From Lachnospiraceae bacterium (GTDB lineage Bacteria; Bacillota; Clostridia; Lachnospirales; Lachnospiraceae), in NCBI GenBank assembly GCA_017620375.1, contig JAFZQN010000080.1:8130-72129 (forward strand): a stretch of DNA of 64,000 nt, read 5' to 3'. This document shows positions 13,381 to 46,535 of this stretch, piece after piece (the first letter of the stretch is position 1; the number at the start of each line of letters is the position of its first letter). The notes under the pieces are model-generated. The model made no database searches. It was given only the letters and a program-made list of their open reading frames with translations, and was not told where the DNA came from. The position numbers and the translations under genes were made by a program.

Positions 13381-13602
13381 TTAGAACCAAGGCCAAAACC
13401 ACCAACTCTTCTTTTTGTAATGGACCGTCTTCATACCAGTATATCCACCACATACATTTTTCGGTTGTTCTACTTCTTCATAACCGATAACCTCACCGGT
13501 AGAAGAAAGAATCTCCTTGGGTGTGGGAGGATTGTAAGGTATACATTCAGTTGCAGAAAATGTAAGAACCTCAACCTCTGGAGTTACATATGCCTTCTTC
13601 AT
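13381..13602 (-). CDS. Lasso-type precursor-like peptide P1 (73 aa) with Trp-rich C-terminus
   Basis: MKKAYVTPEVEVLTFSATECIPYNPPTPKE...HYKKKSWWFWPWF. I take the ATG at 13602 (RBS GGAGG, complement of 13611-13615) rather than the track's GTG at 13611. The leader has the YxxPxVxxL...T motif shared with P2-P5. Confidence 0.6.
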   Translation of the reverse strand: MKKAYVTPEVEVLTFSATECIPYNPPTPKEILSSTGEVIGYEEVEQPKNVCGGYTGMKTVHYKKKSWWFWPWF

Positions 13603-14365
13603 TTGTTTCACCTCCGTTCTTATTTAAAATGAATTTATTGTTAATTATAGTATTGTAAACTACTTGAGCCGCTTCTGGATCCATATTACATTCAAGTTTG
13701 TAAAAGGGAAGGCTTCCAACCAATTTAAGATATAAATTCATGACTAGAGCTTTTTGACTAGGATTTGTTGGTACATGAGTACGCTTCATTAACATGTCCA
13801 ACGATTCTTTAACTCCGAGCGGTTTAACTTGGTTTTCTGTAGCTCTTTCAAGTTTTACTATCGCTTTTAGTGGTGCAGCAATGTTGTTGCTAAGATGATG
13901 CTTTCCGTTCCATGGAGTACCATAGACTTTCATTTCATCAACACGGATCAGAGGCTTGTCGTCATTGATCATCTGAACTCTTGAACCGAATACTTCTCGC
14001 CAAAGTCTGGTGTGAGTACTTTTCCCGGTGCCGCTTTTGGCGGTAAAGATTATTCCTTTGCCATCTATGGCAAGCGCGGATCCGTGAAGCATTATTGCGT
14101 TATACTCGCTTAATTTGTCTGCAATTAGAATATGAATTGCATTGTTTTCTAGAAAACTTTTAGGATAAGCGACCTTTGGACTTCCTTCTGACTCATTTAA
14201 GACATCAAAATCCGCTTGAACACCAATAATGGTCTCTTCGTCAGGTTCAACCGAAAAAGCAGGTTTTTTTGAAGTATAATATCCTGTAAAAAATGTCTTA
14301 TTCTCTTCATACTTGCATTTGACATTTATAGGAATGCCGGCAAGTTCAATACTAAAATCTTCCAC
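13571..14365 (-). CDS. HPr-kinase-related P-loop kinase, divergent from the three PadeK-like paralogs
   Basis: 264 aa with 'MLHGSALAIDGKGIIFTAKSGTGKSTHTRLW'. GTG start with RBS AGGAG. Its 3' end overlaps the P1 start by 32 nt. Confidence 0.6.
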   Translation of the reverse strand: MEDFSIELAGIPINVKCKYEENKTFFTGYYTSKKPAFSVEPDEETIIGVQADFDVLNESEGSPKVAYPKSFLENNAIHILIADKLSEYNAIMLHGSALAIDGKGIIFTAKSGTGKSTHTRLWREVFGSRVQMINDDKPLIRVDEMKVYGTPWNGKHHLSNNIAAPLKAIVKLERATENQVKPLGVKESLDMLMKRTHVPTNPSQKALVMNLYLKLVGSLPFYKLECNMDPEAAQVVYNTIINNKFILNKNGGETNEEGICNSRG

Positions 14366-14453
14366 AGAAGCTCCTGATAACTAATTCTTTTGTATAAAAA
14401 CTCAAGTCGAAATAATATATCCCAAATGAATTAACGATTATTTTCATTAGTAT

Positions 14454-14481
14454 ATTATATTATCAACATGCATTTGTGCAA
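14454..14481 (-). promoter_or_regulatory. Promoter candidate for the kinase-P1 unit
   Basis: Minus strand: TTGCAC, 16-nt spacer, TATAAT. Confidence 0.4.
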
Positions 14482-14650
14482 GACTTCTAACAGAATTGTA
14501 ATAAATTTACCTATGAAACAATACTCAAAGTGATTAGGGATATGAAGATGACGAAGATCAAAGACGCCGGCTATATTCCCTTCTATATTAGGACAAGAGT
14601 TACAGACAGCCGACAAAAATGGTAGATTTTAACACAGTCTATGAGATAGT

Positions 14651-14701
14651 AAAGAATAAAGCCCCCAAAGCCCTTGTTATACAAGGATTTAGAGGGCTTT
14701 T
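14651..14701 (-). terminator. Terminator-like hairpin downstream of the module-1 cyclase
   Basis: Minus strand: aaagccct...ccttgt-ata-acaagg...gcttt, followed by a G/T-rich tail (gggggctttattcttt). Confidence 0.4.
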
Positions 14702-14816
14702 GACTTCAAAAATTGTCAAAAACAGGGTATTAAAAGTGATTGCAAGTATTTTGACAGAGTTATTAAGAAAGCGATCAGTTAAGGAGTAACCGAGAAAGAT
14801 CATTAATGAGAACTTT

Positions 14817-16727
14817 TTATAATGATAGGGAAATTTCTCTGGTTTTTTTGAGAGTCTGTTGTGCACTGATCAAGTTATTTAGGCAGTTAATGGTTCTTAT
14901 ATCTTGTATACTTTCTTCATAAGTTGGTTTTTCTTTATTGACAAAGTTTCTTAGTTTGTTAAAATCTATGTATTTACCCCAGGTTGCTTCATCAAGTTTG
15001 GAAACAACTGCATTCTTCATAGATAAGTACTTATCATACCAGTTTGGATCATTAGGAAGATTTTTTTTGCTGGTAGTTGACTTTTCAACTAATTTATATA
15101 ATGAAGGGGGCATAATATCCTTAAAAGCTTCACGAAAGATACTGCGATTTTGACCCGGCTTCAAAAATTGCTGCCTCGGAATGGATACGGCATAATCAAT
15201 TACACGATAATCCAGATATGGGATTAAATATCTTACATCACAAAATGCACCTTGTAGCGATACATTGTCTAATCGATTTCGACTTCCGCCGGTCAAAATA
15301 TACTTTTTTGTATCAATATTAAAGTATAGTTTTGAAGGGGCATCCTTTTTATGTTCTTGTGAAAAAACGTCATTAATTAATCCTTTTGCATTGATTGGGC
15401 AAGAAAAAGGGTTACGAAGACTTTTCTTCCCGCTGGCAATATTATTTCTGATGCTCTTTATCGTCCTTATAAGTCGGCGTGGCTGTCCGCTTAATCGCGC
15501 ATACATATATTTGAAATAATCAAAATATTCATGACTATGATACATTTCAAACGGATCAGCACGATGACTGACGCCTTCGTCACCGCCATGTCCTGTAAAG
15601 ATAGCTTTTATCCCATAATAGTTCATAAAAAGGCTTGTTTCGGTGATTTTGATCGTATTAATGTACGGCGGGGTAACAAAGTCATCTTCTGAGAGATTAT
15701 CGGTTGTTATTTCATTGCATATCTTATAATTATTTTGGAGAGGCATAGTCATATCAGGGATAAAATGCCTGTAATTACAAGTTATTTTTTCCTGATCGCA
15801 AATATCTTTTATTACTAATCTTTCATCATCGTCAGAGTATGGCAGATTATCAGGAGAATCTGACCACGAAAAGTAATAGCATTTTCTGCCAAGTTTATGA
15901 ATTAAAATGCTGATCACACCCGAATCAAGACCTCCGGATAGTTCAGCGCCTACATCTCCGGTAATCACATCCAGTCTCCGTTTTATGGAGTCGGTGATTA
16001 ATTCTTTAAGGTTATTCTTGTATTGAAGGTCGCTGTTAAACTTGATTTTTTTCTTACCTAATTCCCAGAATTTTATGGATGACTGATCAAATTTGCCATT
16101 ATTAAACTTTATCGTCAGACAGGTTCCTGGTTTGACACAAAAAATGTTAGAATATTCGGTATCCTCGAGGCCTAAAGTTTTGTATCCCATAATGCTTCTA
16201 AAAATCCATTGTTCATTAAGAGTTATATTTGCACGTTGAATACCGGTAAGACCTCTGATATCGGTGGAGAAAGCAATAAAATCATTCTCGATGCAATAGA
16301 ATAAGGGTCTAATCCCCATATGATCTCGGAATAGGGTAAGTTCTTTTTTTTCAGAATTATAGATGGCTCCTGAGAAATCTCCGTTAATATTTTTGAGTGC
16401 AGAGAGTCCTCTTGCGGTTATATAGGAAATTAATAATTGTTCATCAGATACAGTGGGAGGAACTGAACAATCTTCTAGCAGTTCAGATCTATTGTATATT
16501 AATGCATCAATGGCATATATCCGGCTATTGTTACTTATCACTGGTTCACTAGTATCAATGCTTTGATTGATTCTATCTTGACAGCAACCGATATAGTAAT
16601 CCTTTGATTGAATGATTTTATTATTGTATTTTCCATAAGGGAGATTCCAGGATTGCATCCCTTTTATCTCTTTATCGATTTCCATGGAAAAAGTGTACTT
16701 GTTTATCAGACCAAAAATGCTACTCAT
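14817..16727 (-). CDS. Asparagine-synthetase-like lasso cyclase (C protein), module 1
   Basis: 636 aa. The N-terminus 'MSSIFG' lacks the Cys2 glutaminase nucleophile of true AsnB. PP-loop 'AELSGGLDSGV'. Adjacent to precursor and kinase genes. Confidence 0.8.
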   Translation of the reverse strand: MSSIFGLINKYTFSMEIDKEIKGMQSWNLPYGKYNNKIIQSKDYYIGCCQDRINQSIDTSEPVISNNSRIYAIDALIYNRSELLEDCSVPPTVSDEQLLISYITARGLSALKNINGDFSGAIYNSEKKELTLFRDHMGIRPLFYCIENDFIAFSTDIRGLTGIQRANITLNEQWIFRSIMGYKTLGLEDTEYSNIFCVKPGTCLTIKFNNGKFDQSSIKFWELGKKKIKFNSDLQYKNNLKELITDSIKRRLDVITGDVGAELSGGLDSGVISILIHKLGRKCYYFSWSDSPDNLPYSDDDERLVIKDICDQEKITCNYRHFIPDMTMPLQNNYKICNEITTDNLSEDDFVTPPYINTIKITETSLFMNYYGIKAIFTGHGGDEGVSHRADPFEMYHSHEYFDYFKYMYARLSGQPRRLIRTIKSIRNNIASGKKSLRNPFSCPINAKGLINDVFSQEHKKDAPSKLYFNIDTKKYILTGGSRNRLDNVSLQGAFCDVRYLIPYLDYRVIDYAVSIPRQQFLKPGQNRSIFREAFKDIMPPSLYKLVEKSTTSKKNLPNDPNWYDKYLSMKNAVVSKLDEATWGKYIDFNKLRNFVNKEKPTYEESIQDIRTINCLNNLISAQQTLKKTREISLSL

Positions 16728-16762: not shown

Positions 16763-16796
16763 TAAAAAAATAACCCTTGTCATAAATGACAAGGGT
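16763..16796 (-). terminator. Strong rho-independent terminator between precursor P2 and its cyclase
   Basis: Minus strand: acccttgtca-ttta-tgacaagggt followed by TATTTTTTT. Confidence 0.75.
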
Positions 16797-16812: not shown

Positions 16813-17025
16813 TTATGATCTTGCACCTGTGGTTGCTTCTTCTTTACCATACTCGGTAGTAGCCTGCTGCTGATTCTGAGGAAGTGCACACTGCCATGTA
16901 GCTGCTTCCTGAACATAGCCATAAAGAGTACCATCGGACTTTATTTCCTGATAAACATTAAAATCACCATTAGCGGTCTCGCCAATGTTAAGAACTACAA
17001 CTTCTGCATTTTTCCAAGTCTTCAT
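16813..17025 (-). CDS. Lasso-type precursor-like peptide P2 (70 aa), C-terminal Ser
   Basis: MKTWKNAEVVVLNIGETANGDFNVYQE...EEATTGARS. RBS GGAGG 8 nt upstream. Leader motif WxxAxVxxL...T(-2). Confidence 0.65.
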   Translation of the reverse strand: MKTWKNAEVVVLNIGETANGDFNVYQEIKSDGTLYGYVQEAATWQCALPQNQQQATTEYGKEEATTGARS

Positions 17026-17161: not shown

Positions 17162-18067
17162 TTAAATCAAGGATAGAACCTTGTGATATATTTCGTCTAG
17201 TGTATCTTTGTTCTCGGGTCTTATAATAAGGTATATCTTAAATTTTGAGGCTGTTTTCATACACATATCAATAACTTCCTTTGAATTCTCCCATGACCCT
17301 TTAAGACGGTGTAAGAACAGATTATCCCGTATGGACATAAAACATTCGAATCCGCTTAACTTTCGTATAGTTAGTTCTTCTACAGGGGCCTTAATAATAT
17401 AAAAAAAAGAATTTGCTTTTTGAGGATTGTATTCGAAAATATCGTTAACAGGAACAAGATATTTGTCTTTATCTTCGTTTATGTAAATAAGATTTTTTTT
17501 ATCAAGTCCTCTTTTTTCAATCTCATTTGAACAAAGCTTTTGGAAAGGGAAAGCGGGATATACCAGACATTCATCATTGCTAAAGCGAATACCGGCTACA
17601 TCGTCTGCTAACAGTCTTAGTCTGGTTTCCAATAATTTTCCGGCAAGGGAAGACTTCCCTGCTCCAGGGGTACCCGAAATTAGAACAGCCCCTTCTTTTG
17701 TTGATACAGCACTGCAATGAATGGTTAATACGCCTCTTTGTAAGAGTGCGATGGAAAGACAAAACCCTGTAATCCATACAGAAATCGTATCATAATCGTA
17801 ACCTTCTTTTATTTTGACCCAAATTTCGTTGCCGTTTTGTATCAGATAGAACCCACCCCTGTTATAAAAAGCGGATTTATTAAGGCCTATTTCATATAAT
17901 TTTTCTACGGCATCATGTTCCGCCAAAAAACGGATAACATCAGTTTCAACATCTCTTTCTCTTACTGTTATCACATCTTGCACTGTATCTGAATCTCCTG
18001 CCGGAACGAGAAGATTCAATTCAAATTCAGACTCCAATATAATACCATAAATTTTATATCTGTGCAT
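17162..18067 (-). CDS. HPr-kinase-like P-loop kinase (PadeK-type lasso precursor kinase candidate), module 1
   Basis: 301 aa with 'YKIYG' N-terminus, 'IHCSAVSTKEGAVLISGTPGAGKSSLA' and 'YPAFPFQKLC'. Paralogous to 40987-41910 and 48586-49518. Confidence 0.75.
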   Translation of the reverse strand: MHRYKIYGIILESEFELNLLVPAGDSDTVQDVITVRERDVETDVIRFLAEHDAVEKLYEIGLNKSAFYNRGGFYLIQNGNEIWVKIKEGYDYDTISVWITGFCLSIALLQRGVLTIHCSAVSTKEGAVLISGTPGAGKSSLAGKLLETRLRLLADDVAGIRFSNDECLVYPAFPFQKLCSNEIEKRGLDKKNLIYINEDKDKYLVPVNDIFEYNPQKANSFFYIIKAPVEELTIRKLSGFECFMSIRDNLFLHRLKGSWENSKEVIDMCMKTASKFKIYLIIRPENKDTLDEIYHKVLSLI

Positions 18068-18316: not shown

Positions 18317-19705
18317 ATGAGGGGCAGTCACAGACATGCTAATATAAATATTGCGTATATGTGCTTTGATGTACTGTTTGGTATTTTGGCATATATTATC
18401 GCGTCGGCTATAGATAAGGGCAAGAGTTTTGCAAATATAGATTACCTATTGGTATGTACAAGCTCAGTATTACTTATCATTGTATTTAATAAAAACAAGA
18501 GACTTTATGATACGACCTTATTCTTTTATATAGACAGATGGCTTAGTTATTTGACCAGGTCATTTATTGCTGCGAATCTGGTTGTAACAATACTTGCTTT
18601 TTATGTTGGGCATTGTGGAGTAGAAACCAGGTTTTATGTTGTATTTCTTGTAACAGAGTATCTTCTGTTAATTACTAGTGCTTTTTTTACAAGATGGGTG
18701 CTCAGAAGAACAAGGATGTATGCTGTTAGGACACTGCTTGTAGGCACTAAGACAGATTACGAGAGAGTAATACGTTTCTTAAAGCACAATAGTATGAGTG
18801 CTGAGGTTATAGGATATATATCCGAGACAACAACATATCCTGAGGGAGATGATACACCGTTCCTCGGGACTATAGACGATCTTGAAGAAGTAGTCCATAA
18901 GAATTCCATAGATCAGGTATTCTTTATGCAGCACAGAAAAAACCCGGTAAACCTTGAGAAACATGTTGAGTTGTGTATGGAACTGGGTTTGGTGGCTCGT
19001 GTCTTGGTACACCCGTATCGTATAGGTCGTGCCCATTCTGTTATATGCAGTATAGGAACATATCCTGCCGTAACATATCATAACGTAGTGTTGAACGTGT
19101 ATGCAAAAGCGGCAAAGAGGATATTTGATGTTATATTCAGCATAGTCGGTATAATAGTGTTTGCAATACCGATGCTGATCACAGCTATCGCTATAAAGCT
19201 TGATTCAAAAGGCCCTGTTATATTTAAACAGACAAGAGTAGGGCTTAACGGCAGACATTTTAAGATGTTTAAATTCAGAAGTATGGTACAGGATGCCGAA
19301 GCAAAAAAGAAAGAGCTGATGGAAAAAAATAAAGTATCCGGCGGCTTGATGTTTAAAATGGATGATGACCCCAGGATCACTAAGGTAGGTAAATTTATAC
19401 GTAAGACATCGATAGATGAGTTGCCACAGTTCTTTAACGTTTTGTTCGGTACTATGAGTTTGGTAGGTACCCGTCCGCCCACAGTGGATGAGGTATCAAA
19501 GTATGATACAAGGCATTGGAGAAGGCTTTCAGTTAAGCCCGGTATAACCGGCATGTGGCAGACTAGCGGTAGAAGCGAGATAACGGATTTTGAAGAAGTA
19601 GTTGCTCTTGATAAGGAGTATATAGACAACTGGAGTATGTGGCTGGATATCAAGATCCTTTTCAAGACTGTAATTCAGGTATTTATGAGAAAGGGAGCAT
19701 GTTAA
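18317..19705 (+). CDS. Initiating polyprenyl-phosphate sugar phosphotransferase (WbaP/EpsL-type bacterial sugar transferase)
   Basis: 462 aa with N-terminal TM helices and the C-terminal motifs 'KRIFDVIFS...GPVIFKQTRVGLNGRHFKMFKFRSM...DELPQFFNVLFGTMSLVGTRPP'. Confidence 0.85.
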   Translation: MRGSHRHANINIAYMCFDVLFGILAYIIASAIDKGKSFANIDYLLVCTSSVLLIIVFNKNKRLYDTTLFFYIDRWLSYLTRSFIAANLVVTILAFYVGHCGVETRFYVVFLVTEYLLLITSAFFTRWVLRRTRMYAVRTLLVGTKTDYERVIRFLKHNSMSAEVIGYISETTTYPEGDDTPFLGTIDDLEEVVHKNSIDQVFFMQHRKNPVNLEKHVELCMELGLVARVLVHPYRIGRAHSVICSIGTYPAVTYHNVVLNVYAKAAKRIFDVIFSIVGIIVFAIPMLITAIAIKLDSKGPVIFKQTRVGLNGRHFKMFKFRSMVQDAEAKKKELMEKNKVSGGLMFKMDDDPRITKVGKFIRKTSIDELPQFFNVLFGTMSLVGTRPPTVDEVSKYDTRHWRRLSVKPGITGMWQTSGRSEITDFEEVVALDKEYIDNWSMWLDIKILFKTVIQVFMRKGAC

Positions 19706-19717
19706 AGCTATAATACA

Positions 19718-20701
19718 ATGATTTCTGTAGTGGTTCCTATATACAAAGTAGAAAGATTCTTAAACAAATCTATAGAAAGTTTGTTAAATCAGACATATAA
19801 GGATTTTGAATTAATCCTTGTAGATGATGGTTCGCCGGATAATTGTCCCCAAATATGTGATGACTGGGAGAAAAAAGAACCTAAGATAAAGGTTTTTCAC
19901 AAAAAAAATGAAGGTTTGTCTTCTGCTCGGAACAGCGGTATCGAACACGCAAGTGGAGAGTATATTATTTTCCCGGATCCCGACGATTGGGTGGAACCGG
20001 ATTATTTAGAAAGGTTGATAAACCTTAGAGAAGAATTTAAAGCGGATTTAAGCATTTGCGGTCATTATCATGGTACAAATATATATGATCCTGAAGCTGA
20101 ATTGATAGTTCTGACAATGGAGGAAGCACTCGAAAAACTGATGATGCCACACTCTTTCTGTGGGTATACATGGAATAAACTATATAACTTGGATATCATT
20201 AAAAGAAATCAGCTTCGATTTGATGTTGAATTAGGAATGGTTCAGGATTTACATTTTAATGTTCGGTATTTTCAGTATTGTGAGAAAATAGTTTATGATC
20301 CGGTTCCTTTATATCACCATACGATAGAAAATGGGGTAACATCGCGCAATACTCCGCTAACAACACGAAAAATAAGCGGATTATTAACTTATAAGAAAAT
20401 TGCAGACATGACTCACGGAAATTATCCGAATATTGAGCGAATATCTTACTGTTCTCTTTGTAAAATGTGTCTTGATTATGTTGATATATACTATAAAACC
20501 AAGATGAATTCAAAAGAAATACTTAATCTTTTACAGAGCAATTTTGTAAAATATAAAAAGTATTTTTATAATGGTAAAGCATTTTCTGTTAGATTTAAAC
20601 GTTTTTCAAGACTTATGGTAATACATCCACGATTATACTGGTATGCCCGCCGTTTTTATTGGCGCTTCTTGGTACCAAATAAAAAGAAAGACACAACATG
20701 A
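19718..20701 (+). CDS. Family 2 glycosyltransferase
   Basis: 'ISVVVPIYKVERFLNKSIESLLNQTYKDFELILVDDGSPD'. Confidence 0.85.
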   Translation: MISVVVPIYKVERFLNKSIESLLNQTYKDFELILVDDGSPDNCPQICDDWEKKEPKIKVFHKKNEGLSSARNSGIEHASGEYIIFPDPDDWVEPDYLERLINLREEFKADLSICGHYHGTNIYDPEAELIVLTMEEALEKLMMPHSFCGYTWNKLYNLDIIKRNQLRFDVELGMVQDLHFNVRYFQYCEKIVYDPVPLYHHTIENGVTSRNTPLTTRKISGLLTYKKIADMTHGNYPNIERISYCSLCKMCLDYVDIYYKTKMNSKEILNLLQSNFVKYKKYFYNGKAFSVRFKRFSRLMVIHPRLYWYARRFYWRFLVPNKKKDTT

Positions 20702-21822: not shown

Positions 21823-21857
21823 GAATAACGCAAATATAAGTATTCTTGGAGAGAAGT

Positions 21858-23806: not shown

Positions 23807-23835
23807 CATTTTATTAGTGTCGGGAGGTGATAAGT

Positions 23836-25968: not shown

Positions 25969-26049
25969 TTGTTGATTAATAAGATATTATATGTTAGTAT
26001 ATCATTCTTGGGGAATTTTAATAAAAATATAGATTAGGAGTATAGCCGG

Positions 26050-26814: not shown

Positions 26815-26857
26815 GATGATTATTCTGAAAGAATAAATTAAAAGAGAGGAAAAAACA

Positions 26858-29464: not shown

Positions 29465-29470
29465 AGTTTT

Positions 29471-33780: not shown

Positions 33781-33811
33781 AGATAACGGGTATAAAAAGG
33801 AATGAGATATA

Positions 33812-34990: not shown

Positions 34991-35009
34991 ACAGGAAATA
35001 TTTGATACA

Positions 35010-36440: not shown

Positions 36441-36476
36441 TTTATAGATAGAGGGTTACATTAAGGGGATAGGTTG

Positions 36477-38632: not shown

Positions 38633-39121
38633 ATGGCTAACGAATCAGATAATACTGAAGCAAAAAAAGGTTTTTGGTATAATTGTATATTAGCAAGAGG
38701 ATTCAGGTTTATAAAGTATAACAAAGCCAAGAAGCTTACTGCGCGTGCGATTTTTCTTTCAGCGTATTACAGACTATGCATATTGTTGGTAAAACCCAAG
38801 AAACTTCATAAACGATGGGGTGTGGAAGGTGAAGAGACAAGTATGGATGATGTAATGCCCTGGCAGTACAGATATTCTTACTGGGTTTCCTATGCAGTTG
38901 ATAAGGTGTGTTCAAGGACAGCCTGGGAGAGTAAATGTCTTGTGCGTGCTCTTACTGCCCAGCATCTGTTAAAAAAGAAAGGAATTCCTTCCACTATGTA
39001 CCTTGGGTGTAAAATGGAAGAAGGAAAGATGGTAGCCCATGCTTGGCTTAGGGTAGGAAAATATTATGTTACCGGGGGAAATGGAGAAGGGTATTCTATT
39101 GTTGACCGGTTCCGTACATAA
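38633..39121 (+). CDS. Lasso peptide leader peptidase B2 (transglutaminase-like Cys protease)
   Basis: 162 aa with 'WESKCLVRALTAQHLL' (Cys) and 'VAHAWLRVG' (His). Confidence 0.8.
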   Translation: MANESDNTEAKKGFWYNCILARGFRFIKYNKAKKLTARAIFLSAYYRLCILLVKPKKLHKRWGVEGEETSMDDVMPWQYRYSYWVSYAVDKVCSRTAWESKCLVRALTAQHLLKKKGIPSTMYLGCKMEEGKMVAHAWLRVGKYYVTGGNGEGYSIVDRFRT

Positions 39122-39148: not shown

Positions 39149-40957
39149 ATGTCTGCTATATGGGGAGTTGTTGATTTTAACGGAAAAGCCATAGGAAATG
39201 ATATAAAAGAAAAAATGAAAGAGAGTTTTTCCGAATGTAAGATTGATAAGGTGCAAGATATACATAAGGATAATTATTATCTGGCAACAGGTATCCAGAA
39301 TATTGTAGAAGAGGCTCAATTGGAACAGTTTCCCTATACATATATTGATGGCAAAGTGATGGTAGCGGATGCTATAATAGACAATCGTACCGAAATGCTT
39401 ACGGAGTTTAAACTTAAAAATGAACTAAGTTTGAAAGAAATAGATGGAAGTATACTATATGAGTCAGTTGCTGGAAACTTAAGACAATCATTGGAAAAAC
39501 TATGTGGGGCATTTGCATTTGTAGAATATGATGAAAATGAGAAGACGATTTATGTAGCAAATGATGTTGTTGGAACCAGATCCATATATTATTCCTTTTG
39601 TAACGGACGCTTCGTTTTTTCTTCACTTATAAAAACAATCCTTCCCTTTATGCCGACTGTAGAAGTGGAAGAAAAATGGCTCTCACAGTTTATCGACAAT
39701 GACAACTTGTTAATAGTAGACAGTCCTTCGGCCACTCCATATAAAGAAATATATCGTTTAGAGCCCGGAGAATTGCTAATTATAAAAAAAGCAGGGGTAG
39801 AGCATATAGCTTATTGGGATCCGCGGAAAAAAGTTAAGAATTTAAAACTGAAAACCGATGAAGGATATAAAGCTCTTGTTTTGGATACTTTTAAAAAATG
39901 TGTAGAATCAGTTATTCGTACTCCGGGAGAAATTGGAATACTTTTAAGTGGAGGGTTGGATTCTAACGCAGTAGCAGCATATGCTGCACCGTTTTTAAAA
40001 AAAGCCGGAAAAAGACTTTTATCGTATACTTCTGTTCCAAATGATAAGATTGAACCAATTCCCAAGCGATCATATTACGTAAGCAATGAGAGGATTTATA
40101 TAGAAAAATTAAGAGAATACCATTCAAATCTGGAACCACACTTTATTGACGTCTCAAAGATAGATGTAATGAAGGACTTTGAGATAGTTTCCGAAATGAT
40201 TGAATCGCCAGTAAAAACAGTTGTAAATATGTCTTGGATATATGAATTGGTAAAACAGGCAGAATCGGATGGCTGTAAGATCCTTTTGGGAGGTCAATAC
40301 GGTAATATAACGATATCCTACGGATTTCTATATAACCTTTTTGCCACATATAAATATTCTGGTAGATTTATAAAACTGATAAAAGCTGTTAACACATATG
40401 GAAAAAAATATAAAAGAAACAGAAAAAGAGTGCTGAAATATGCATTACAAATAGAGAAAGTGCATTCCTTAAAAAAAGGAAGAACAAAGATGTATGACAA
40501 GGAGGCATTACGTCAAACCGGAGAGACGGAAATGCATGAATCCTTGGCATCAGGTCTGATATTCAGAGATCCCACCAGGGACCGAAGGCTTATTGAACTA
40601 GTGCTTTCTCTTCCTATCAAATGTTTTGTTGATGCTGAAACTGACCGAAGAATGGTTAGAGTATATATGAAAGATATAATTCCGGATATTATATGCTCCG
40701 ACCAATTTCATCGTGGATCTCAAGGGACTTCAGGATTTGATCAGATAAGAAATGACTGGGAAACAATAAAAAGTGATCTTATCCGGAAATATGGTCTTGC
40801 TTCCGGGAAAAAGTATCTGTCAAAAATGAATCTTTGTGAATGGATCGAGAAGATAGACGAAAAAGATAAATCTAATGAATTTAATTTGATGAAGGCTATT
40901 TATCTGGGTTATTTGTGCCAGTATCTTGAAAAAATGAATTCAACTGAAAAGAAGTAA
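39149..40957 (+). CDS. Asparagine-synthetase-like lasso cyclase (C protein), module 2
   Basis: 602 aa with 'MSAIWGV' (no Cys2) and PP-loop 'LLSGGLDSNA'. Confidence 0.85.
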   Translation: MSAIWGVVDFNGKAIGNDIKEKMKESFSECKIDKVQDIHKDNYYLATGIQNIVEEAQLEQFPYTYIDGKVMVADAIIDNRTEMLTEFKLKNELSLKEIDGSILYESVAGNLRQSLEKLCGAFAFVEYDENEKTIYVANDVVGTRSIYYSFCNGRFVFSSLIKTILPFMPTVEVEEKWLSQFIDNDNLLIVDSPSATPYKEIYRLEPGELLIIKKAGVEHIAYWDPRKKVKNLKLKTDEGYKALVLDTFKKCVESVIRTPGEIGILLSGGLDSNAVAAYAAPFLKKAGKRLLSYTSVPNDKIEPIPKRSYYVSNERIYIEKLREYHSNLEPHFIDVSKIDVMKDFEIVSEMIESPVKTVVNMSWIYELVKQAESDGCKILLGGQYGNITISYGFLYNLFATYKYSGRFIKLIKAVNTYGKKYKRNRKRVLKYALQIEKVHSLKKGRTKMYDKEALRQTGETEMHESLASGLIFRDPTRDRRLIELVLSLPIKCFVDAETDRRMVRVYMKDIIPDIICSDQFHRGSQGTSGFDQIRNDWETIKSDLIRKYGLASGKKYLSKMNLCEWIEKIDEKDKSNEFNLMKAIYLGYLCQYLEKMNSTEKK

Positions 40958-40986: not shown

Positions 40987-41910
40987 ATGAAAAAATATCG
41001 TTATAAAATATATGGTCTTATAGTTGAATCTGAATTGGAAATAGCACAAGCAACATCACTTTCAGTTGATAGGAAATCTTTAGAAAATGATGTTGAAATA
41101 GTATTTGGTGAAATACCCGAAAGATTAAGAAAAGCAGGAGAAGAAGGGTATGGATCATGGATCAACGGGTTTAAGGCTGCATGGTTTAATACGAAAGGTA
41201 CGGCACAATACCTTATTACCGGAGGAAATAAGATCGTAGTCCGTCCTTATCCTGATCCGGATGAAAAGTTGATGGTCTCAATGATACTCAGCGCAGGAAT
41301 GTCATTGATCCTTCTTCAAAGAAATGAGCCTGTTTTTCATGGAAGCGTTATAGAAAAAGAAGGATATGCATATATAATATCAGGTACCAGTGGAGCCGGA
41401 AAATCAACAGTAACTATGGAACTGTTAAAAGACAATGCTTGGCTGTTTATGGCTGATGATACCGTGCGATTGTCATTGGATAATGGGAAAATTCATTGTT
41501 ATCCAACATATCCACAACAAAAAGTATGTCGTGATCTGGCCTGCCGCATGGGGCTTGACTTAAGCGATATGATTTATATCGATGAGGGAAGAGATAAATT
41601 TGCATACAAAAGAACGGACAGATATTATGATCATACTGCAGAGCTGAAGAGTATATATATAATTAACAAAAGTAAAAATGTCTGTGAAGTAAAATATGAG
41701 AAATTACAGGGAATGGATTATGTTCATGCGTTTATAAATAACTTGTACCTTTCGGATAATTATAAACGAGATACGGGAGTTCCGAATGAATTTATGAAAC
41801 TGATAAATCTATTATTTCATCAGGCAGATATTTATCTTATTACTCGCCCTGAAGAAGGGGATACCGTAAAAAATGTTGTAGATACAATAAGATTCTTACA
41901 AAGTTGTTAG
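40987..41910 (+). CDS. HPr-kinase-like kinase (PadeK-type), module 2
   Basis: 307 aa with 'YKIYG', 'FHGSVIEKEGYAYIISGTSGAGKSTVT' and 'YPTYPQQKVC'. Confidence 0.8.
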   Translation: MKKYRYKIYGLIVESELEIAQATSLSVDRKSLENDVEIVFGEIPERLRKAGEEGYGSWINGFKAAWFNTKGTAQYLITGGNKIVVRPYPDPDEKLMVSMILSAGMSLILLQRNEPVFHGSVIEKEGYAYIISGTSGAGKSTVTMELLKDNAWLFMADDTVRLSLDNGKIHCYPTYPQQKVCRDLACRMGLDLSDMIYIDEGRDKFAYKRTDRYYDHTAELKSIYIINKSKNVCEVKYEKLQGMDYVHAFINNLYLSDNYKRDTGVPNEFMKLINLLFHQADIYLITRPEEGDTVKNVVDTIRFLQSC

Positions 41911-41997: not shown

Positions 41998-42183
41998 ATG
42001 AAGACATGGACAAGTCCTGTAGTAGAAGAACTTGATGTTAAGGTTACTGAGTATGATCCCAATGGTGGTACTAGACCCGATGCATTTCTTAAAGATGAGC
42101 ATACAGGAGAAATAACAAAGTACTTATATGGACCTTCTGCAGGAGATGCAGGTGATCCTACAATTGTTGGTACAGAGGCATAA
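41998..42183 (+). CDS. Lasso-type precursor peptide P3 (61 aa)
   Basis: MKTWTSPVVEELDVKVTEYDPNGGTRPDAFLKDEH...IVGTEA. RBS AAGGAGG. Confidence 0.75.
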   Translation: MKTWTSPVVEELDVKVTEYDPNGGTRPDAFLKDEHTGEITKYLYGPSAGDAGDPTIVGTEA

Positions 42184-42205: not shown

Positions 42206-42394
42206 ATGAAGAAGTGGGAAAACCCTGAGATGGTTAAACTTAACATTAATATGACAGCATATGGTGATGATACAAGTAAGGAGCCTGATTGGACTATTTA
42301 TTCAATCGGCGGAGATAAGATTCTTGATCAGACATTTGGACCTTCAGGATCAGAACATCCTGCAGATGCTGTTGTTAAACAGACACAGCCTTAA
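42206..42394 (+). CDS. Lasso-type precursor peptide P4 (62 aa)
   Basis: MKKWENPEMVKLNINMTAYGDDTSKEPDW...VVKQTQP. This is an internal ATG of the 88-aa track ORF, with RBS GGAGG 5 nt upstream. Confidence 0.75.
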   Translation: MKKWENPEMVKLNINMTAYGDDTSKEPDWTIYSIGGDKILDQTFGPSGSEHPADAVVKQTQP

Positions 42395-42412: not shown

Positions 42413-42452
42413 GAAAAGAATCCGAAGTTTTTACTTCGGATTTTCTTTTGTT
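42413..42452 (+). terminator. Rho-independent terminator after the precursors and before B1/exporter
   Basis: gaaaagaatccgaagt-tttt-acttcggattttcttt followed by TGTTT. Confidence 0.75.
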
Positions 42453-42517: not shown

Positions 42518-42781
42518 ATGGACAAAGATACAAAAATAGTATTAAAAAAGAAACTTAATGTTACAGATCTTGCCGGTGAGAAGGTAATGGTAGATTTTGA
42601 TAGTGGTAAGTATTTCCTTATTAAGGGTGTCGGAAACGATATATGGGAGATGATCCAGAATGAAATTACCCCCAACGAGATAATAGACAAACTGCTTTCT
42701 GAGTACGATGTAAACAGGGAGGAATGTGAGAAGTCTGTTATGGAATTCCTTAAGAAAATGGAAGGCTATAATTTTATTTAA
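42518..42781 (+). CDS. PqqD-family leader-recognition protein (lasso B1 / RRE)
   Basis: 87 aa with 'VTDLAGEKVMVDFDSGKYFLIKGVGNDIWEMI...EECEKSVMEFLKKM'. Confidence 0.8.
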   Translation: MDKDTKIVLKKKLNVTDLAGEKVMVDFDSGKYFLIKGVGNDIWEMIQNEITPNEIIDKLLSEYDVNREECEKSVMEFLKKMEGYNFI

Positions 42782-42793: not shown

Positions 42794-44473
42794 ATGGGAA
42801 AACTGAAAGAAGCATGGAAAGACAGGGATAACCAATATAAATATGCTAAATGGCTGATGAAGTATTCTAAGCCATATATGGGTCGTATTACACTTATGAT
42901 GGCGTTTAGCATTATTTCAACGGTGGTCTCTCTATGGATGGTGCAGATATCCAAAAATATTATAGATAATGCTACCGGTGGCAATAAGTTTGTCACTCTG
43001 CTTATTGTATATTTTTGTTTAATGATCGCTATGCAAGTAGTGGGTATAGTATCTACACTATTATCAGCGATACTTAGTGAGAAATTCTCATTTGGTATTA
43101 GGAAGCAGATATATGATAAGATTATCAGATCGCATTGGATGGATGTAAAGAGGTATCATACGGGCGATCTTATGACCAGGCTTACCAGCGATGCAGGAGC
43201 TATAGCAGATGGTATCATTGGAACAATACCCAATATCATAATCTTGTTTGTAGAACTGTTGATGGTGTTTGTTACATTATTTATTTATTCACCGTTACTT
43301 GCAGTATTTGCAATGCTTGTTGCACCTGTTGCGGCTTTGGTATCCTTCTTCCTGGGAAAGAAGCTGAAAAAGCTGCAAATAAAGGTTCAGGAATCGGAAT
43401 CTAATTATCGCTCATTCCTTCAGGAAAGTTTGGCAAATCTTCTCGTGGTAAAATCATTTGCAAATGAGGACTATTCTGTTGACAGGCTTACTACTCTTAG
43501 AGAAGAACGTTTCAAATGGGTCTTTAAAAAGACCAAGATGAGTATAGCCAGTAGTACTGTGATGTCTATGACATTTCAGCTGGGATATATTGTAGCCTTT
43601 GCCTATGGAGCATGGCAGATTTCTACCGGACAGATCACATATGGTACCATGACGGTGTTTCTTACTTTGGTAAACAGGGTACAAAGTCCGATAATCGGTT
43701 TGGCGCAACAGATTCCGAGAGTAGTATCGGTACTAGCTTCAGCGGGACGAGTTATAGAGTTACAGAATATTCCCGTAGAGGAACGTTTACCGGAAGTAGT
43801 GACCTCTGACAAGATCGGTGTGGATATAGAAAATCTTACTTTTGGATATACAGATGAGATCGTACTTGATAATGTGTCCTTAAATATCAAGCCGGGTGAA
43901 TTTGTTGCAATTATCGGTGAATCCGGCATAGGAAAAACTACTTTGCTGCGTATTATTATGTCTTTCATGGGTAATTATACAGGAAAAGTGGACTTCTTTG
44001 ATGAGAATGGGTTAACGGACCCTGCAAATGCCAATACAAGAAGATTTATATCGTATGTACCTCAGGGTAATACCTTATTCAGCGGTACAGTCAGAGAAAA
44101 CATACGCATGGGTAAACTTGATGCTACGGATGAAGAAATGTGGGATGCATTGAAGCTTTCCGCAGGATATGACTTTGTCAAGGAGTTACCTAACGGTCTT
44201 TATACTGTCATAGGTGAGAGAGGACATGGTATCTCGGAAGGTCAGGCACAGCGTATAGCTATAGCGAGAGCTTTTGTACGAAAAGCTCCGCTGCTTATCC
44301 TGGATGAAGCTACATCTGCTCTTGATGAGAATACTGAGAAGGAAGTAATAAAAGGTCTTCAGCAGCTTGAGCCGCGTCCGACCTGTATAGTTGTTACTCA
44401 TAGAAAGAGTATACTTACTTATTGTGACCGAGAGATCAAGATTGAGAACAAAAACATGGAAGAGATACAGTAA
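42794..44473 (+). CDS. ABC exporter, fused TMD-NBD (McjD-like lasso export/immunity candidate)
   Basis: 559 aa with Walker A 'GESGIGKTTL', signature 'ISEGQAQRIAIARA' and Walker B 'LLILDEATS'. No C39 peptidase domain. Confidence 0.85.
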   Translation: MGKLKEAWKDRDNQYKYAKWLMKYSKPYMGRITLMMAFSIISTVVSLWMVQISKNIIDNATGGNKFVTLLIVYFCLMIAMQVVGIVSTLLSAILSEKFSFGIRKQIYDKIIRSHWMDVKRYHTGDLMTRLTSDAGAIADGIIGTIPNIIILFVELLMVFVTLFIYSPLLAVFAMLVAPVAALVSFFLGKKLKKLQIKVQESESNYRSFLQESLANLLVVKSFANEDYSVDRLTTLREERFKWVFKKTKMSIASSTVMSMTFQLGYIVAFAYGAWQISTGQITYGTMTVFLTLVNRVQSPIIGLAQQIPRVVSVLASAGRVIELQNIPVEERLPEVVTSDKIGVDIENLTFGYTDEIVLDNVSLNIKPGEFVAIIGESGIGKTTLLRIIMSFMGNYTGKVDFFDENGLTDPANANTRRFISYVPQGNTLFSGTVRENIRMGKLDATDEEMWDALKLSAGYDFVKELPNGLYTVIGERGHGISEGQAQRIAIARAFVRKAPLLILDEATSALDENTEKEVIKGLQQLEPRPTCIVVTHRKSILTYCDREIKIENKNMEEIQ

Positions 44474-45320
44474 ATGTAGTGCCTTGACCTAAAGTACTTT
44501 CGGCATTTATAGTTCCTCCGTGCCGTTCCACTATAGCGCGTGCGATGGAAAGACCGAGACCGCTGCCGGAGGTTTCTCCGGGGGTACGGGCATTTGAAAC
44601 AGTATATGTTCTGGTAAATATATGGGGTAGTGCTTCGGGCGCTATCCCATTTCCATTATCAGATACGGATATTATAAGTTGTGCGCTGGAAGGTGAAAAA
44701 ACACTAGGATTCTCTACGTTATTCTTAGAACTAGGTTTATAGATATGAGCACTAAGTCGAATGTAGGTTGCCTTTTCTCCGGCATATTTAGCTGCGTTTG
44801 TAAGTAAATTATCAAGGACGCGTACGATTTTCTGTGGTTCGATATTTATAACGCAGTTTAAATCTGCAGGGACGTCCAGTAGCATGTCAAACCGGTCATA
44901 TCGGGAATCTATGATAGCATCATAGTAGTATTCTTCCAGAAATGTACAGGCATCAACAGATTGAATCTTTAATGGACGGGCTTCATCTTCGACATTGAAA
45001 AGATAATACATATCGTTGATGAGTTCCTCTAAAGAGGATGTACGTCTGTCAATAAGCGAAAAAAGTTTCCTGCTTTCATCAATGGAAAGATTATCGGAGG
45101 TCAATGCCAAATCTATTGCACTGCGGATGGCAGTGATCGGAGCTCTTAAGTCATGAGAGATATTGGCAAGCATCATTTCTCTTTCTTTCTGGAGAGTCCG
45201 GAGCCTGGAATGAGCCTCTAACAATTCACTTGTCAATTCTTCTACGGATTTTGTTTCAAGGTTTGGTGATTGGAAAGCTTTGCTCATTTTTCGTATCATG
45301 CCGCAGACATGCTTACACAT
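44436..45320 (-). CDS. Histidine kinase core (DHp + HATPase) without recognisable sensor or TM region
   Basis: 294 aa with H-box 'ISHDLRAPITAI', 'DNGNGI' and 'GSGLGLSIA'. No RBS at the ATG at 45320. The 3' end overlaps the convergent exporter gene by 38 nt. Confidence 0.65.
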   Translation of the reverse strand: MCKHVCGMIRKMSKAFQSPNLETKSVEELTSELLEAHSRLRTLQKEREMMLANISHDLRAPITAIRSAIDLALTSDNLSIDESRKLFSLIDRRTSSLEELINDMYYLFNVEDEARPLKIQSVDACTFLEEYYYDAIIDSRYDRFDMLLDVPADLNCVINIEPQKIVRVLDNLLTNAAKYAGEKATYIRLSAHIYKPSSKNNVENPSVFSPSSAQLIISVSDNGNGIAPEALPHIFTRTYTVSNARTPGETSGSGLGLSIARAIVERHGGTINAESTLGQGTTFTVSLPCFCSQS

Positions 45321-45402
45321 CGGGGTCGTGCCTGGAGCGACACCGATGGAAGTTTGAAAATGTAACTCTCAAACTTTATCTCCTAAGAAAAAACAGTATG
45401 GC

Positions 45403-46095
45403 TCACTTTACTATGAATTTATACCCTTTTGACCAAACAGTTTCGACCATGTTATATAGGGTATAATCAATATTCATTTTTTTGCGGAGCCTACTTACAT
45501 TTACCATTATCGTACGTCTGTCAAGTTCGCTGTATGTTCCGAATAGAGACTTACCAAGTTCTTCGAAGGTGATGGTCTGGTTCGGATGAGAGCAGAAATA
45601 CATTAGAATATCATAATCGCGATTGGTGAGTTCCAAGTCTTTATCCATATAAAAAGCCTTATGAAGAGCCATGTCAATCTTGAGATCGCCGAAAACAAGA
45701 GTGTTTTGGTCGGTTTTTGGGGCGGTGAGCATACCTGCGCGCCTTAATTGAGCGTCTATGCGGGCTTTAAGCTCTTTTAGGCTAAAGGGTTTAATGATAT
45801 AATCGTCGCCACCGGTTACAAGTCCTTTTATTTTGTCATCTTCGGATACTTTACCTGTGAGGAATATGATAGGGATGGCGGAAAATTGTCTGATCCTGCT
45901 ACATAGTTCATATCCATCCATGCCGGGCATCATAACATCAAGGACTATAAGGTCCGGATGTTTGGCCTTTGCGATATTAAGACCCAGTAGGGGATTTGAA
46001 GCGGTATAAACTTTAAAATCCTGCGAAACAAGGTATTTTTTGTTCATCTCCAAAACTGCAGCATCATCATCAATCAGTAAAAGTGTGGCAGCCAT
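45403..46095 (-). CDS. OmpR/PhoB-family response regulator
   Basis: 230 aa with 'LLLIDDD', 'DLIVLDVMMPGMDG' and a C-terminal winged helix. Confidence 0.88.
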   Translation of the reverse strand: MAATLLLIDDDAAVLEMNKKYLVSQDFKVYTASNPLLGLNIAKAKHPDLIVLDVMMPGMDGYELCSRIRQFSAIPIIFLTGKVSEDDKIKGLVTGGDDYIIKPFSLKELKARIDAQLRRAGMLTAPKTDQNTLVFGDLKIDMALHKAFYMDKDLELTNRDYDILMYFCSHPNQTITFEELGKSLFGTYSELDRRTIMVNVSRLRKKMNIDYTLYNMVETVWSKGYKFIVK

Positions 46096-46239
46096 ATGGT
46101 CCCCCTTTTGTATAGACTATAGGAAAAGTAACTTAAGTATTTCTAATTATAACATACAAGGTATTCAATCGCAAATGCTATTTCGTAGCAAATTGGCAAA
46201 AACTGTACAGATTTGCTTATAATTGAATTATATGGAAAT

Positions 46240-46286
46240 AAAAGACAAAAACAGGTGATCCATGCTTTATGACACGTATCACCTGT
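46240..46286 (-). terminator. Rho-independent terminator downstream of precursor P5
   Basis: Minus strand: acaggtgat-...-atcacctgt followed by TTTTGTCTTTT. Confidence 0.65.
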
Positions 46287-46322
46287 CTGCGATCAATTAT
46301 TTTTCTTAAGAAACAACTTATA

Positions 46323-46535
46323 TTATTGTTCTCCCCATCCGCCTGTCCAAAAAGGATTATTCTCTTTAACTTCTTTTTCTGATTTACCATTTCCTTCCCA
46401 ATAGGGGTTATGGCATCTTCCGAGGTCTTCATCATATTCTTCATAACTTTCTTCGTTAGTATCTACCCAATAAATACCATTTGTTGTATCTTTAACATTG
46501 ATCTCATCTAAAACAGGTTTCTTCCACTCTTTCAT
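46323..46535 (-). CDS. Lasso-type precursor-like peptide P5 (70 aa)
   Basis: MKEWKKPVLDEINVKDTTNGIYWVDTNEE...FWTGGWGEQ. RBS GGAG 9 nt upstream. Confidence 0.65.
   Translation of the reverse strand: MKEWKKPVLDEINVKDTTNGIYWVDTNEESYEEYDEDLGRCHNPYWEGNGKSEKEVKENNPFWTGGWGEQ

Follow-up and report, generated by a model that had tools for sequence, protein, structure and literature searches.

The closest described relatives of the system considered here are the paeninodin (pade) and pseudomycoidin (psm) lasso peptide clusters of Paenibacillus and Bacillus, including the pba cluster of P. alginolyticus. These clusters encode an HprK-like kinase, a precursor peptide, an Asn-synthase-like cyclase, a PqqD-type B1 protein, a transglutaminase-like B2 protein, an NTP_transf_5 nucleotidyltransferase and an MsbA-like exporter (PMC6993621). 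The same gene set is present in a 64,000-nucleotide stretch from an uncultured gut or rumen Lachnospiraceae bacterium (assembly GCA_017620375.1, contig JAFZQN010000080.1, positions 8,130 to 72,129 of the forward strand), referred to here as the window, together with five small open reading frames (ORFs), P1 to P5, that share a leader motif. The kinase-associated split-B gene set, consisting of B1, B2, a cyclase (C), an HprK-like kinase and an ATP-binding cassette (ABC) exporter, is complete and co-located in the window. The locus is best explained, with a probability of roughly 0.68, as a composite kinase-associated split-B (paeninodin-type) lasso locus arranged around an exopolysaccharide (EPS) operon. 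In this locus, B1 would be shared by P2 to P5, with P1 and its neighbour K' forming a separate remnant.

In the paeninodin pathway, B1 hands the leader to B2 (PMC5067487), and a Trp is near-invariant in the leaders of paeninodin-like clusters (PMC13381572). The paeninodin ring joins the N-terminal Ala to an inner Asp. PsmK and PsmN phosphorylate and glycosylate the terminal Ser of pseudomycoidin, with PsmN being the enzyme linked to glycosylation of the phospho-pseudomycoidin (PMC6993621). The leaders in the window resemble those of the paeninodin type in their WxxPx[L/V] motif and in a Thr located 13 residues past the Trp. Both kinds of cluster are embedded in a polysaccharide/capsule locus (PMC13381572). 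Paeninodin and the P2 family also share a C-terminal Ser, whereas P3, P4 and P5 do not end in Ser. The window differs from pade and psm in having three diverged cyclases, three kinases and four W-type precursors for a single set of B1, B2 and exporter D, as opposed to one of each. The cores of P2 to P5 are 42-52 aa long compared to ~21-23 aa, and the P3/P4 family carries an Asp 11 residues after the leader Thr (Thr+11) rather than at Thr+10 as in the paeninodin type. Unlike pade and psm, the cluster is split across a 19-kb EPS operon.

Similar rumen precursors have already been predicted. Lasso precursors with predicted cores of 21-44 aa were reported in silico from rumen Butyrivibrio, Lachnospira, Eubacterium cellulosolvens and Lachnospiraceae (YSD2013) (Sabino et al. 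2020, PMC7533575). These share with the window the leader MKxW[NT]xPxxxELxIxxTAx, long cores and several lasA genes per genome. Their clusters also contain an HPr kinase, a nucleotidyltransferase, a WalK/WalR-like two-component system and glycosyltransferases, as the window does. The precursor of E. cellulosolvens LD2006 resembles P4 and that of Butyrivibrio FC2001 resembles P5. The study assumes Gly at +1 and Thr at -3 as an untested premise, and none of its peptides was characterised. In the parts of the study that were covered, no mention was found of B1/B2 sharing among several cyclases, of cassette presence or absence, or of a Y-leader/ScmC/radical S-adenosylmethionine (SAM) neighbour (PMC7533575).

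Judged by their sequences, P2 to P5 are members of the known paeninodin-type system, with the leader type, long cores and neighbours having been predicted previously. One B1 accompanied by several cassettes is common in the clade. The most valuable leads are the anomaly at the boundary and ring, the great length of the cores, the arrangement of a hub with cassettes and the Y-leader/ScmC/radical-SAM neighbour.

The five ORFs lie where the initial annotation had placed them and their translations match its sequences exactly. Each ATG is preceded by a good ribosome-binding site, a GGAG or GGAGG Shine–Dalgarno sequence 6-10 nt upstream. The leaders of P2 to P5 are of the W-type and that of P1 is of the Y-type, with P1 carrying a Thr at both +9 and +13 from its Tyr, as had been described. 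A six-frame translation of the window contains five copies of the motif [WY]xx[PA]x[VLM]xx[LI]x4T that have a Met placed 1-6 residues ahead of them, compared to a mean of 0.14 and a maximum of 1 in 50 shuffles. In addition, a 19-position leader hidden Markov model (HMM) was trained solely on 55 external family members, none of which came from the window. Among 1762 stop-to-stop segments, it detects P1 to P5 at E = 1e-10 to 1e-6, with the runner-up at E = 0.75. Thus, no sixth precursor has been overlooked in the window, and the motif is not a common property of random small ORFs, as the HMM picks only P1 to P5.

The public annotation of this metagenome-assembled genome (MAG) calls all five genes (MBO4921445/448/472/473/478), each as a “hypothetical protein”. 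Identical or near-identical copies of the ORFs are found in rumen and gut metagenome contigs, and the reading frames are preserved in diverged alleles and orthologues. The possibility that the ORFs are spurious is rejected by the motif statistics, the ribosome-binding sites, the terminators (described below) and the conservation of the frames across diverged orthologues. All five are real precursor-peptide genes.

A Pfam scan of the five peptides gave nothing meaningful. In NCBIfam, the paeninodin family lasso peptide model NF033524 is the sole match for P3 (26.2 bits), P5 (20.9) and P4 (18.3), and P1 and P2 have no match to it at E <= 1. When 1.84 billion representative proteins were screened with a profile of the five peptides, 59 matches were obtained at E < 1e-3, of which approximately 55 are small ORFs of 31-110 aa, and each of P1 to P5 has relatives among them. 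The top-scoring long proteins, P0001 (3743 aa) and P0006 (1256 aa), are artefacts in which the scores of identical repeats of ~10 bits each are summed. A further match, P0007 (110 aa), holds tandem leader-like motifs in one called ORF (MKEWSNPQIVSLDVSQT... and ...MRKQWISPEIAAIDIRET...), and may be a fused double precursor or the read-through of two adjacent genes.

The gene map was built from Pfam and NCBIfam, and reveals one B1, one B2 and one exporter D alongside five precursors, three cyclases and, in addition to K', three HprK-like kinases. B1 is the only PqqD gene in the window, in agreement with the initial annotation. It matches PF05402 at 62 bits and NF033536 at 79.4 bits, against a cutoff of 80. 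Its closest solved structure is the paeninodin-type RiPP recognition element (RRE) 9x90_B (E 3e-13), where RiPP denotes a ribosomally synthesised and post-translationally modified peptide; the RRE 9x8z, from the linear polyphosphorylated peptide (LPP) type of system, gives E 0.13. In the 9x90 entry, PbaB1 is bound to its WxxPxL leader (Popov et al. 2026, PMC13381572). B2 matches NF033537 at 71 bits against a cutoff of 33. The three cyclases C1 to C3 belong to PF00733, have the lasso cyclase family NF033535 as their best NCBIfam match and retain an intact SGGLDS ATP-binding motif, with a pairwise identity of only 21-27%. Kinases K1 to K3 give weak but consistent matches to Hpr_kinase_C/HprK_rel_A and are 32-34% identical to one another, while K' is only 15-20% identical to them. 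Sequence searches of the PDB returned only generic asparagine synthetases for C2, only a spurious repeat protein for B2 and no match for K'.

The genes fall into three parts. The main cluster N-B2-C2-K2-P3-P4-B1-D is fused to the 3′ end of the EPS operon, with a gap of 12 nt from the end of the operon to N and gaps of 12-29 nt through N-B2-C2-K2. The accessory cassettes K1-P2-C1 (cassette 1) and K3-C3-P5 (cassette 3) are located at the two ends of the locus. It had been claimed that every precursor sits next to a cyclase or kinase gene. This holds for P1, P2, P3 and P5, which adjoin a kinase-like or cyclase gene; P4 resides between P3 and B1, one gene away from K2. In their recurrence in other genomes, the three parts act as units, each pairing a cyclase type with a core family.

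The order EPS-N-B2-C2-K2-A-A-B1-D, in which A denotes a precursor, recurs in another species (L031), with enzymes that are 67-87% identical and orthologues of P3 and P4 that are 61% and 40% identical. As both are shared with L031, the tandem precursor pair and the EPS fusion are old. The A-C1 unit, with a precursor of the TANG...E...C-terminal Ser type, also occurs in L029, L050 and L115. The K3-C3-(P5-like) unit is also found in L021, L025, L026 and L027, with cyclases that are 39-94% identical to C3. Cassette 3 is missing from the otherwise 97%-identical strains L002, L004 and L005. The borders of this indel are at ~46194 and 49598, and the corresponding stretch of L002 is 13990-14190. A 14-bp motif, TTGCRAATTGGCAA, is present at both borders (46186-46199 and 49607-49620), is palindromic at the right border, and precedes K3 as well as the response-regulator gene. 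It could serve as an operator or as a site of recombination. With 4 matches against 1.6 expected, its count alone does not reach significance. It is speculative that the adjacent response regulator and histidine kinase, the 14-bp motif and the EPS fusion reflect co-regulation with capsule synthesis.

A B1-centred scan of metagenome contigs gave 80 loci, always with one B1. The full-length loci commonly combine a single B2 with one or two cyclases, a pair of kinases, and two or three ORFs that carry the leader and differ in their cores. The response regulator/histidine kinase pair and a Bac_transf gene are often within 10 kb of B1, and the former pair also recurs beside K3-C3-A cassettes. The layout of one reader and several writers is therefore typical of the clade, with the window an especially rich example. 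A three-cyclase alignment scan of genome contigs recovered only seven loci. All of these are C1- or C3-like, and the species of the window is not among them. In three human gut loci (L071, L092 and L104, at ~11950-13140), a second kinase and precursor pair is present without a second cyclase. The core of this precursor is His/Pro/Gly-rich and Ser-terminated (TACGWFPWYPGHPGGGGHHPGHHPGGGDC...EEFLS).

The initial annotation held that the cores diverge completely downstream of the leader Thr. Direct pairwise alignment of the five cores against shuffles supports this, as no pair is significant. It does not stand for P3 and P4, whose cores are homologous by profile. A core-only HMM, for which 21 outside sequences of the T[AE]Y-x8-D-G-x-Y...T[YF]GPS subfamily were used, matches the cores of P3 (27 bits, E 4e-7) and P4 (18 bits, E 2e-4). 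The cores of P1, P2 and P5 are not matched by it. Therefore, there are four core families rather than five unrelated cores. Each of the window cores is conserved within its own family across genera. Counted from Thr+2, the core lengths are 43, 44, 52, 52 and 54 aa, or one residue less from Thr+3.

The P2 relatives P0002, P0035 and L115 A68 keep the motif GK[DE]EATTG[SA]RS. Members of the TANG subfamily, which includes P2, almost always end in Ser, as P2 itself does; in paeninodin and pseudomycoidin this terminal Ser is the residue that becomes phosphorylated. The C-terminal residues of P3, P4, P5 and P1 are A, P, Q and F, respectively. Conserved internal Ser motifs, GPS in P3 and P4 and GNGxS in P5, are candidate phosphosites only. 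In the P5 family, different genera keep the C-terminal module DLGxCxNPYWxGNGxS...NP[FY]WxGGWG, with variation in the N-terminal part of the core, and alleles or orthologues are found in L001, L021 and L025-L027. When P5 is compared to its L001 allele (14249-14458), the first 31 residues are identical and all 11 differences are in the C-terminal half. These are mostly charge changes (E/K to Q/L/H), with a one-residue length difference and an intact frame. A further core family, TAH-NWTG[IL]YRDGGYIGDGEISGHL[ST]W...LS, is represented by L013 164-376, L024 12024-12233, L041, L044 and L049. It goes with C3-like cyclases (34-36% identity), and the L013 member has a long (PN)n repeat tail.

The position of the leader/core boundary is less straightforward. 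The initial annotation placed the Thr at -2, and this is not secure, given the Asp at Thr+11 in most W-type relatives and a Thr+3 position dominated by Gly, Ser and Ala. Two independent sets of W-type family members were compiled (n=63 and n=41). The Asp at Thr+11 is present in 44/63 and 25/41 members, respectively. Thr+3 is Gly, Ser or Ala in 48/63 of the first set and Gly, Asn, Ser or Ala in 39/41 of the second, while Thr+2 is variable in both (Y, N, Q, H, C and others in the first set). The Bacillus homologue of paeninodin carries its Asp at Thr+10. The leader Trp of PbaA is numbered -15 (PMC13381572), which, with the Trp-to-Thr spacing of 13, places the Thr at -2 in that peptide.

Under Thr(-2), the ring acceptors available would be N1-E9 for P2, Y1-E8 for P4 (not conserved in its relatives) and N1-D7 for P5, while P3 has no acceptor at positions 7-9 and only D10. 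Under Thr(-3), they would be G1-E8 for P2, D1-D9 for P3, G1-D9 for P4 and G1-E9 for P5. P1 has no Asp or Glu acceptor at 7-9 under either boundary. The P3/P4 family would thus have either Thr at -3 and a 9-residue ring, usually with Gly, Ser or Ala at position 1, or a 10-residue ring. Of the two, Thr(-3) is tentatively favoured.

P1 belongs elsewhere. Its leader is of the Tyr type and its C-terminus is aromatic, and both the TEC junction and an ILSSTGEV motif are conserved. A word-indexed homologue search with P1 returned only P1 itself; its relatives are P0018, P0045 and L115 A70/A72, in which a conserved Glu lies at a varying distance from the Cys (9, 11 or 12 residues). The neighbouring K' matches the Pfam family PF27840 (ScmC) and shares 71-78% identity with the ScmC proteins that accompany P1-like ORFs in L013, L014 and L115. 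Its family comprises proteins of ~245 aa, with 5495 homologues at E <= 1e-10 in gut Clostridia, none of which bears a name.

The left arm of the window, on the minus strand, runs K1, P2, C1, a 450-nt gap, K', P1 and then purE. L115 and L117 are syntenic with it. Their order is Bac_transf, K1 (85%), the P2 orthologue (81%), C1 (82%), K' (71%) and the P1 orthologue (48%), followed by a 618-aa ScmC-radical SAM/SPASM fusion, a third Y-leader ORF, an 88-aa PqqD protein, DUF4956-VTC-CotH and purE (99%). The window is without ~6.3 kb of L115, from the fusion gene through CotH, and L116 has a transposase at this place. The same ScmC-radical SAM fusion/PqqD module is carried by L013. The module resides at L115 8001-12059, L013 576-4306 and in L117, and only its first two genes are found in the window (13381-14365), which has no radical SAM gene and no second PqqD beside K' and P1. 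In L014 and L015, only K' and a P1-like ORF stand beside Bac_transf, with no cyclase.

As L115, L117 and L013 carry the full module and the window has neither its maturase nor its RRE, P1 with K' is the surviving part of a neighbouring system. By leader, partner and synteny, P1 is best assigned as a precursor of this Y-leader/ScmC/radical-SAM/PqqD system and not as a canonical lasso precursor. The proposed match to lasso leaders recognised by PqqD-like RREs is therefore upheld for P2 to P5, with P1 assigned to the other system. Since its own maturase and RRE are absent from the window, P1 is probably an orphan, or a linear and possibly phosphorylated peptide. Paeninodin-type RREs prefer W over Y leaders (PMC13381572).

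Two described systems come close to the P1 module. LPP clusters resemble P1 and K' in their YxxPxV leader, HprK-like partner and highly variable C-termini. They too have a paeninodin-like lasso cluster alongside at a capsule locus and face the same problem of W/Y leader discrimination (PMC13381572). The spacing of the LPP leader (YxxPxVLxHQxIxFETxxS) differs from that of the P1 type (YxxPxVExLxFxET[AE]C) (PMC13381572). LPP clusters are defined by an SpI-type (SipW-like) peptidase and LppB; no signal-peptidase family is found among the scanned island ORFs, and P1-type loci carry the ScmC-radical SAM/SPASM fusion and PqqD instead of the LPP peptidase set. Membership of P1 in the LPP family is rejected on the absence of the SpI peptidase and on the leader spacing. 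The SynChlorMet cassette (ScmC TIGR04249, ScmD TIGR04248 and ScmE/F radical SAM/SPASM) is like the K' system in its PF27840 protein and in the L013/L115 arrangement, where a PqqD-like protein comes after the fusion. On the ScmC equivalog TIGR04249, K' reaches 20 bits, far below the cutoff of 125, which makes it a distant relative and not a member. A literature search found nothing on the SynChlorMet cassette or on an HprK/radical-SAM/PqqD RiPP. The Y-leader/ScmC/radical-SAM system is possibly an undescribed RiPP class.

One match, P0033 (L016 216-1680), combines a W-type leader with a P1-like core (TEC-IPYCPP..., with an FWWLWWF end), followed by a K1-like kinase (55% identical). This chimera suggests that leader and core have recombined at least once between the two systems.

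By analogy with paeninodin and pseudomycoidin, the single RRE B1 would bind the common WxxPx[VLM]xx[LI]...T leader of P2 to P5, in trans where necessary, and pass them to the single peptidase B2. Each core family would then be closed by its own diverged cyclase and phosphorylated on Ser by its own HprK-like kinase. In P2, the phosphosite would probably be the conserved C-terminal Ser. The NTP_transf_5 enzyme may glycosylate the phosphorylated product, and exporter D would carry it out of the cell. The leaders would be alike and the cores fall into separate families because one shared reader constrains the former and separate writers the latter.

Several observations weigh against a paeninodin-type lasso locus with a shared B1. 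P3, P4 and P5 all fall under the NF033524 cutoff (27 bits), and the NCBIfam scores of the three cyclases are under their curated cutoffs. The predicted cores, at 42-54 aa, are outside the range of characterised lasso peptides (~13-33 aa), the longest of which is pandonodin at 33 aa (PMC13352647). With Asp at Thr+11 in most P3/P4 relatives, the Thr(-2) rule and the 7-9-residue ring rule cannot both hold. In the P5 family, no acceptor keeps the same spacing from the Thr, and the Agathobacter relatives have none at 7-9 under either boundary; a non-lasso outcome is therefore possible for cassette 3. An orphan kinase-cyclase-precursor cassette of an Agathobacter MAG (L026 9054-12172) is surrounded by cobalamin, VanZ and enolase genes. 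It has neither B1 nor B2 nor an exporter within 10 kb, and its precursor has no Asp or Glu at core positions 7-9 under either boundary. Because of this orphan, B1/B2 sharing is unproven. The single B1/B2 count holds for the 64-kb window, and further copies in the genome are possible. A literature search found no experimental paper on the long-core clade, with no member characterised and no product observed.

It is unlikely that some or all of the cassette products are unthreaded, being long linear or branched-cyclic peptides that are mainly phosphorylated or glycosylated and perhaps tied to the capsule. The length of the cores and their long conserved hydrophilic or aromatic tails would suit such products, as would one kinase per cassette plus a nucleotidyltransferase, the conserved EPS-operon fusion, the kinase-precursor pairs of L071, L092 and L104 and the P5 family's lack of a fixed acceptor. 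LPPs share the kinase, NTP transferase, RRE, exporter and the same kind of locus (PMC13381572), and pseudomycoidin produced without PsmK and PsmN is not threaded (PMC6993621). Yet every cassette in the window has its own lasso-cyclase homologue with SGGLDS intact, and in the P2 and P3/P4 families the spacing from the leader Thr to a strongly conserved acidic residue is fixed, as expected of a ring acceptor; the LPP hallmark, an SpI-type peptidase, is absent among the scanned ORFs. The orphan cassette of L026, which has only housekeeping genes within 10 kb, bears instead on the idea that the cassettes are independent neighbours, with cassettes 1 and 3 using a B1/B2 elsewhere in the genome or needing no leader peptidase. 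Pseudomycoidin can be obtained from a leaderless core by the cyclase alone (PMC6993621), and only 64 kb of the genome is visible. Independence is nevertheless decidedly unlikely, as the leaders of P2 and P5 fit the family profile as well as those of P3 and P4, which is hard to explain without a reader, and B1-centred loci in which two cyclases and two kinases accompany a single B1 and a single B2 within 20 kb are a regular finding.

In the initial annotation, all five ORFs, including P1, encode lasso precursors that the single PqqD protein recognises; the Thr is at -2 and none of the five cores is related to another. All five do match the leader HMM, and P1 keeps YxxPxVxxL and a Thr at +13. 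PbaB1 still binds a W-to-Y leader variant, although more weakly (~40 uM; PMC13381572), and P0033 carries a P1-like core behind a W-type leader, beside a K1-like kinase. Such a reading is improbable, since P1 lacks an Asp or Glu at core positions 7-9 under any boundary and the distance of the family Glu varies. K'-P1 is also an independent module, being cyclase-free in L014/L015 and having its own radical-SAM maturase and PqqD in L013/L115/L117. The homology of the P3 and P4 cores and the conflict of the Thr+11 Asp with a simple Thr(-2) and 7-9-residue ring tell against it as well. The composite paeninodin-type locus, with B1 shared by P2 to P5 and P1/K' as a separate remnant, is thus preferred. 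A more ambitious version is tentative: a hub-and-cassette platform making phospho- and perhaps glyco-lassos of 42-52 residues that would be the largest known, break a canonical rule (through Thr at -3 or a 10-residue ring) and be tied to the capsule and not to antibiosis, beside the remnant of an undescribed Y-leader/ScmC/radical-SAM RiPP class with a look-alike leader and its own RRE. Within this picture, an RRE/peptidase/exporter/nucleotidyltransferase set co-transcribed with the capsule operon would serve interchangeable cassettes that strains gain and lose.

If the preferred explanation is true, a gut and rumen clade of Lachnospiraceae makes lasso peptides ~50% longer than any characterised. 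The modular design of one reader and several writers would offer combinatorial lasso engineering a natural template. With its fixed value of 11, the Thr-to-Asp spacing would provide a direct test of whether it is Thr(-2) or the 7-9-residue ring rule that bends. The fusion to the capsule operon and to a two-component system would hint at a cell-surface or signalling role and not at antibiosis; paeninodin and pseudomycoidin show no antibacterial activity (PMC6993621). The widespread ScmC-type family pairs with Y-leader peptides, accompanied in some loci by a radical-SAM fusion and a PqqD of its own, and would possibly represent an undescribed RiPP class beside lasso clusters. The P1-type system would be a second natural case of W- versus Y-leader discrimination, parallel to LPP beside paeninodin clusters.

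The coordinates of the genes and hairpins are collected in Table 1.

Table 1. Genes and RNA hairpins of the locus, with positions given in window coordinates.
Feature	Positions	Strand	Remarks
Hairpin and U-run, intrinsic-terminator-like, downstream of P1	13253..13289	-	-21.8 kcal/mol, z -6.7
P1 precursor, 73 aa, Y-type leader (MKKAYVTPEVEVLTFSATE, then C...)	13381..13602	-	leader HMM E 7e-7
K', ScmC-type HprK-like P-loop protein, GTG start	13571..14365	-	PF27840; 32-nt overlap with P1 start
C1, lasso-cyclase-like Asn-synthase homologue, cassette 1	14817..16727	-	NF033535 best NCBIfam match; SGGLDS
Hairpin and U-run between P2 and C1 (attenuator/terminator)	16773..16796	-	-15.1 kcal/mol, z -5.5
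P2, 70-aa W-type precursor, TANG subfamily	16813..17025	-	Glu at Thr+10; C-terminal Ser
K1, HprK-like kinase, cassette 1	17162..18067	-	
Exopolysaccharide/capsule operon, 19 kb	18317..37433	+	continues uninterrupted into lasso genes
N, NTP_transf_5 nucleotidyltransferase, PsmN-like	37446..38618	+	PF14907, 1.7e-46
B2, transglutaminase-like lasso leader peptidase, sole copy in window	38633..39121	+	NF033537
C2, lasso-cyclase-like, main cluster	39149..40957	+	
K2, HprK-like kinase, main cluster	40987..41910	+	
P3, 61-aa W-type precursor, core family T[AE]Y-x8-D...[YF]GPS	41998..42183	+	
P4, 62-aa W-type precursor, P3 core family	42206..42394	+	
Hairpin and U-run between P4 and B1 (attenuator/terminator)	42414..42449	+	-16.2 kcal/mol, z -4.2
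B1, PqqD-type RiPP recognition element, sole copy in window	42518..42781	+	
D, MsbA-like ABC exporter	42794..44473	+	ABC_membrane plus ABC_tran
Cytoplasmic histidine kinase of two-component system	44436..45320	-	
Response regulator of two-component system	45403..46095	-	
Hairpin and U-run downstream of P5	46248..46288	-	-20.7 kcal/mol, z -4.4
P5, 70-aa W-type precursor	46323..46535	-	C-terminal module kept across genera
C3, lasso-cyclase-like, cassette 3	46625..48574	-	
K3, HprK-like kinase, cassette 3	48586..49518	-	

Every precursor unit ends in a stable hairpin followed by a U-run, with z-scores of -4.2 to -6.7 for all four. The hairpins of P2 and P4 are placed between the precursor and the downstream enzyme genes. 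The order of precursor, hairpin and enzyme is the usual attenuator layout in RiPP operons. An Rfam scan of the whole window matched no RNA family, and therefore no riboswitch lies ahead of purE or of the clusters. In particular, the 460-nt region ahead of purE (12921-13380) has no Rfam match and no purine riboswitch.

The G+C content is 31-37% over ~13-52 kb of the window, compared to 42-47% in the flanks. The low-G+C block of EPS and RiPP genes (13000-52000) is bounded on one side by the pur operon (3518-12921, minus strand). Its position between this operon and the higher-G+C flanks suggests a variable or horizontally exchanged surface-polysaccharide island. The EPS operon encodes a Bac_transf priming transferase, GT2/GT4 transferases, Wzz, Wzy and a flippase, along with a pyruvyl transferase, Alg13/14-like proteins and a BspA-type leucine-rich repeat protein. 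The last of these, encoded in the middle of the operon (23827-25968), is a 713-aa protein that combines its BspA-type repeats with an extensin-like Pro-rich region.

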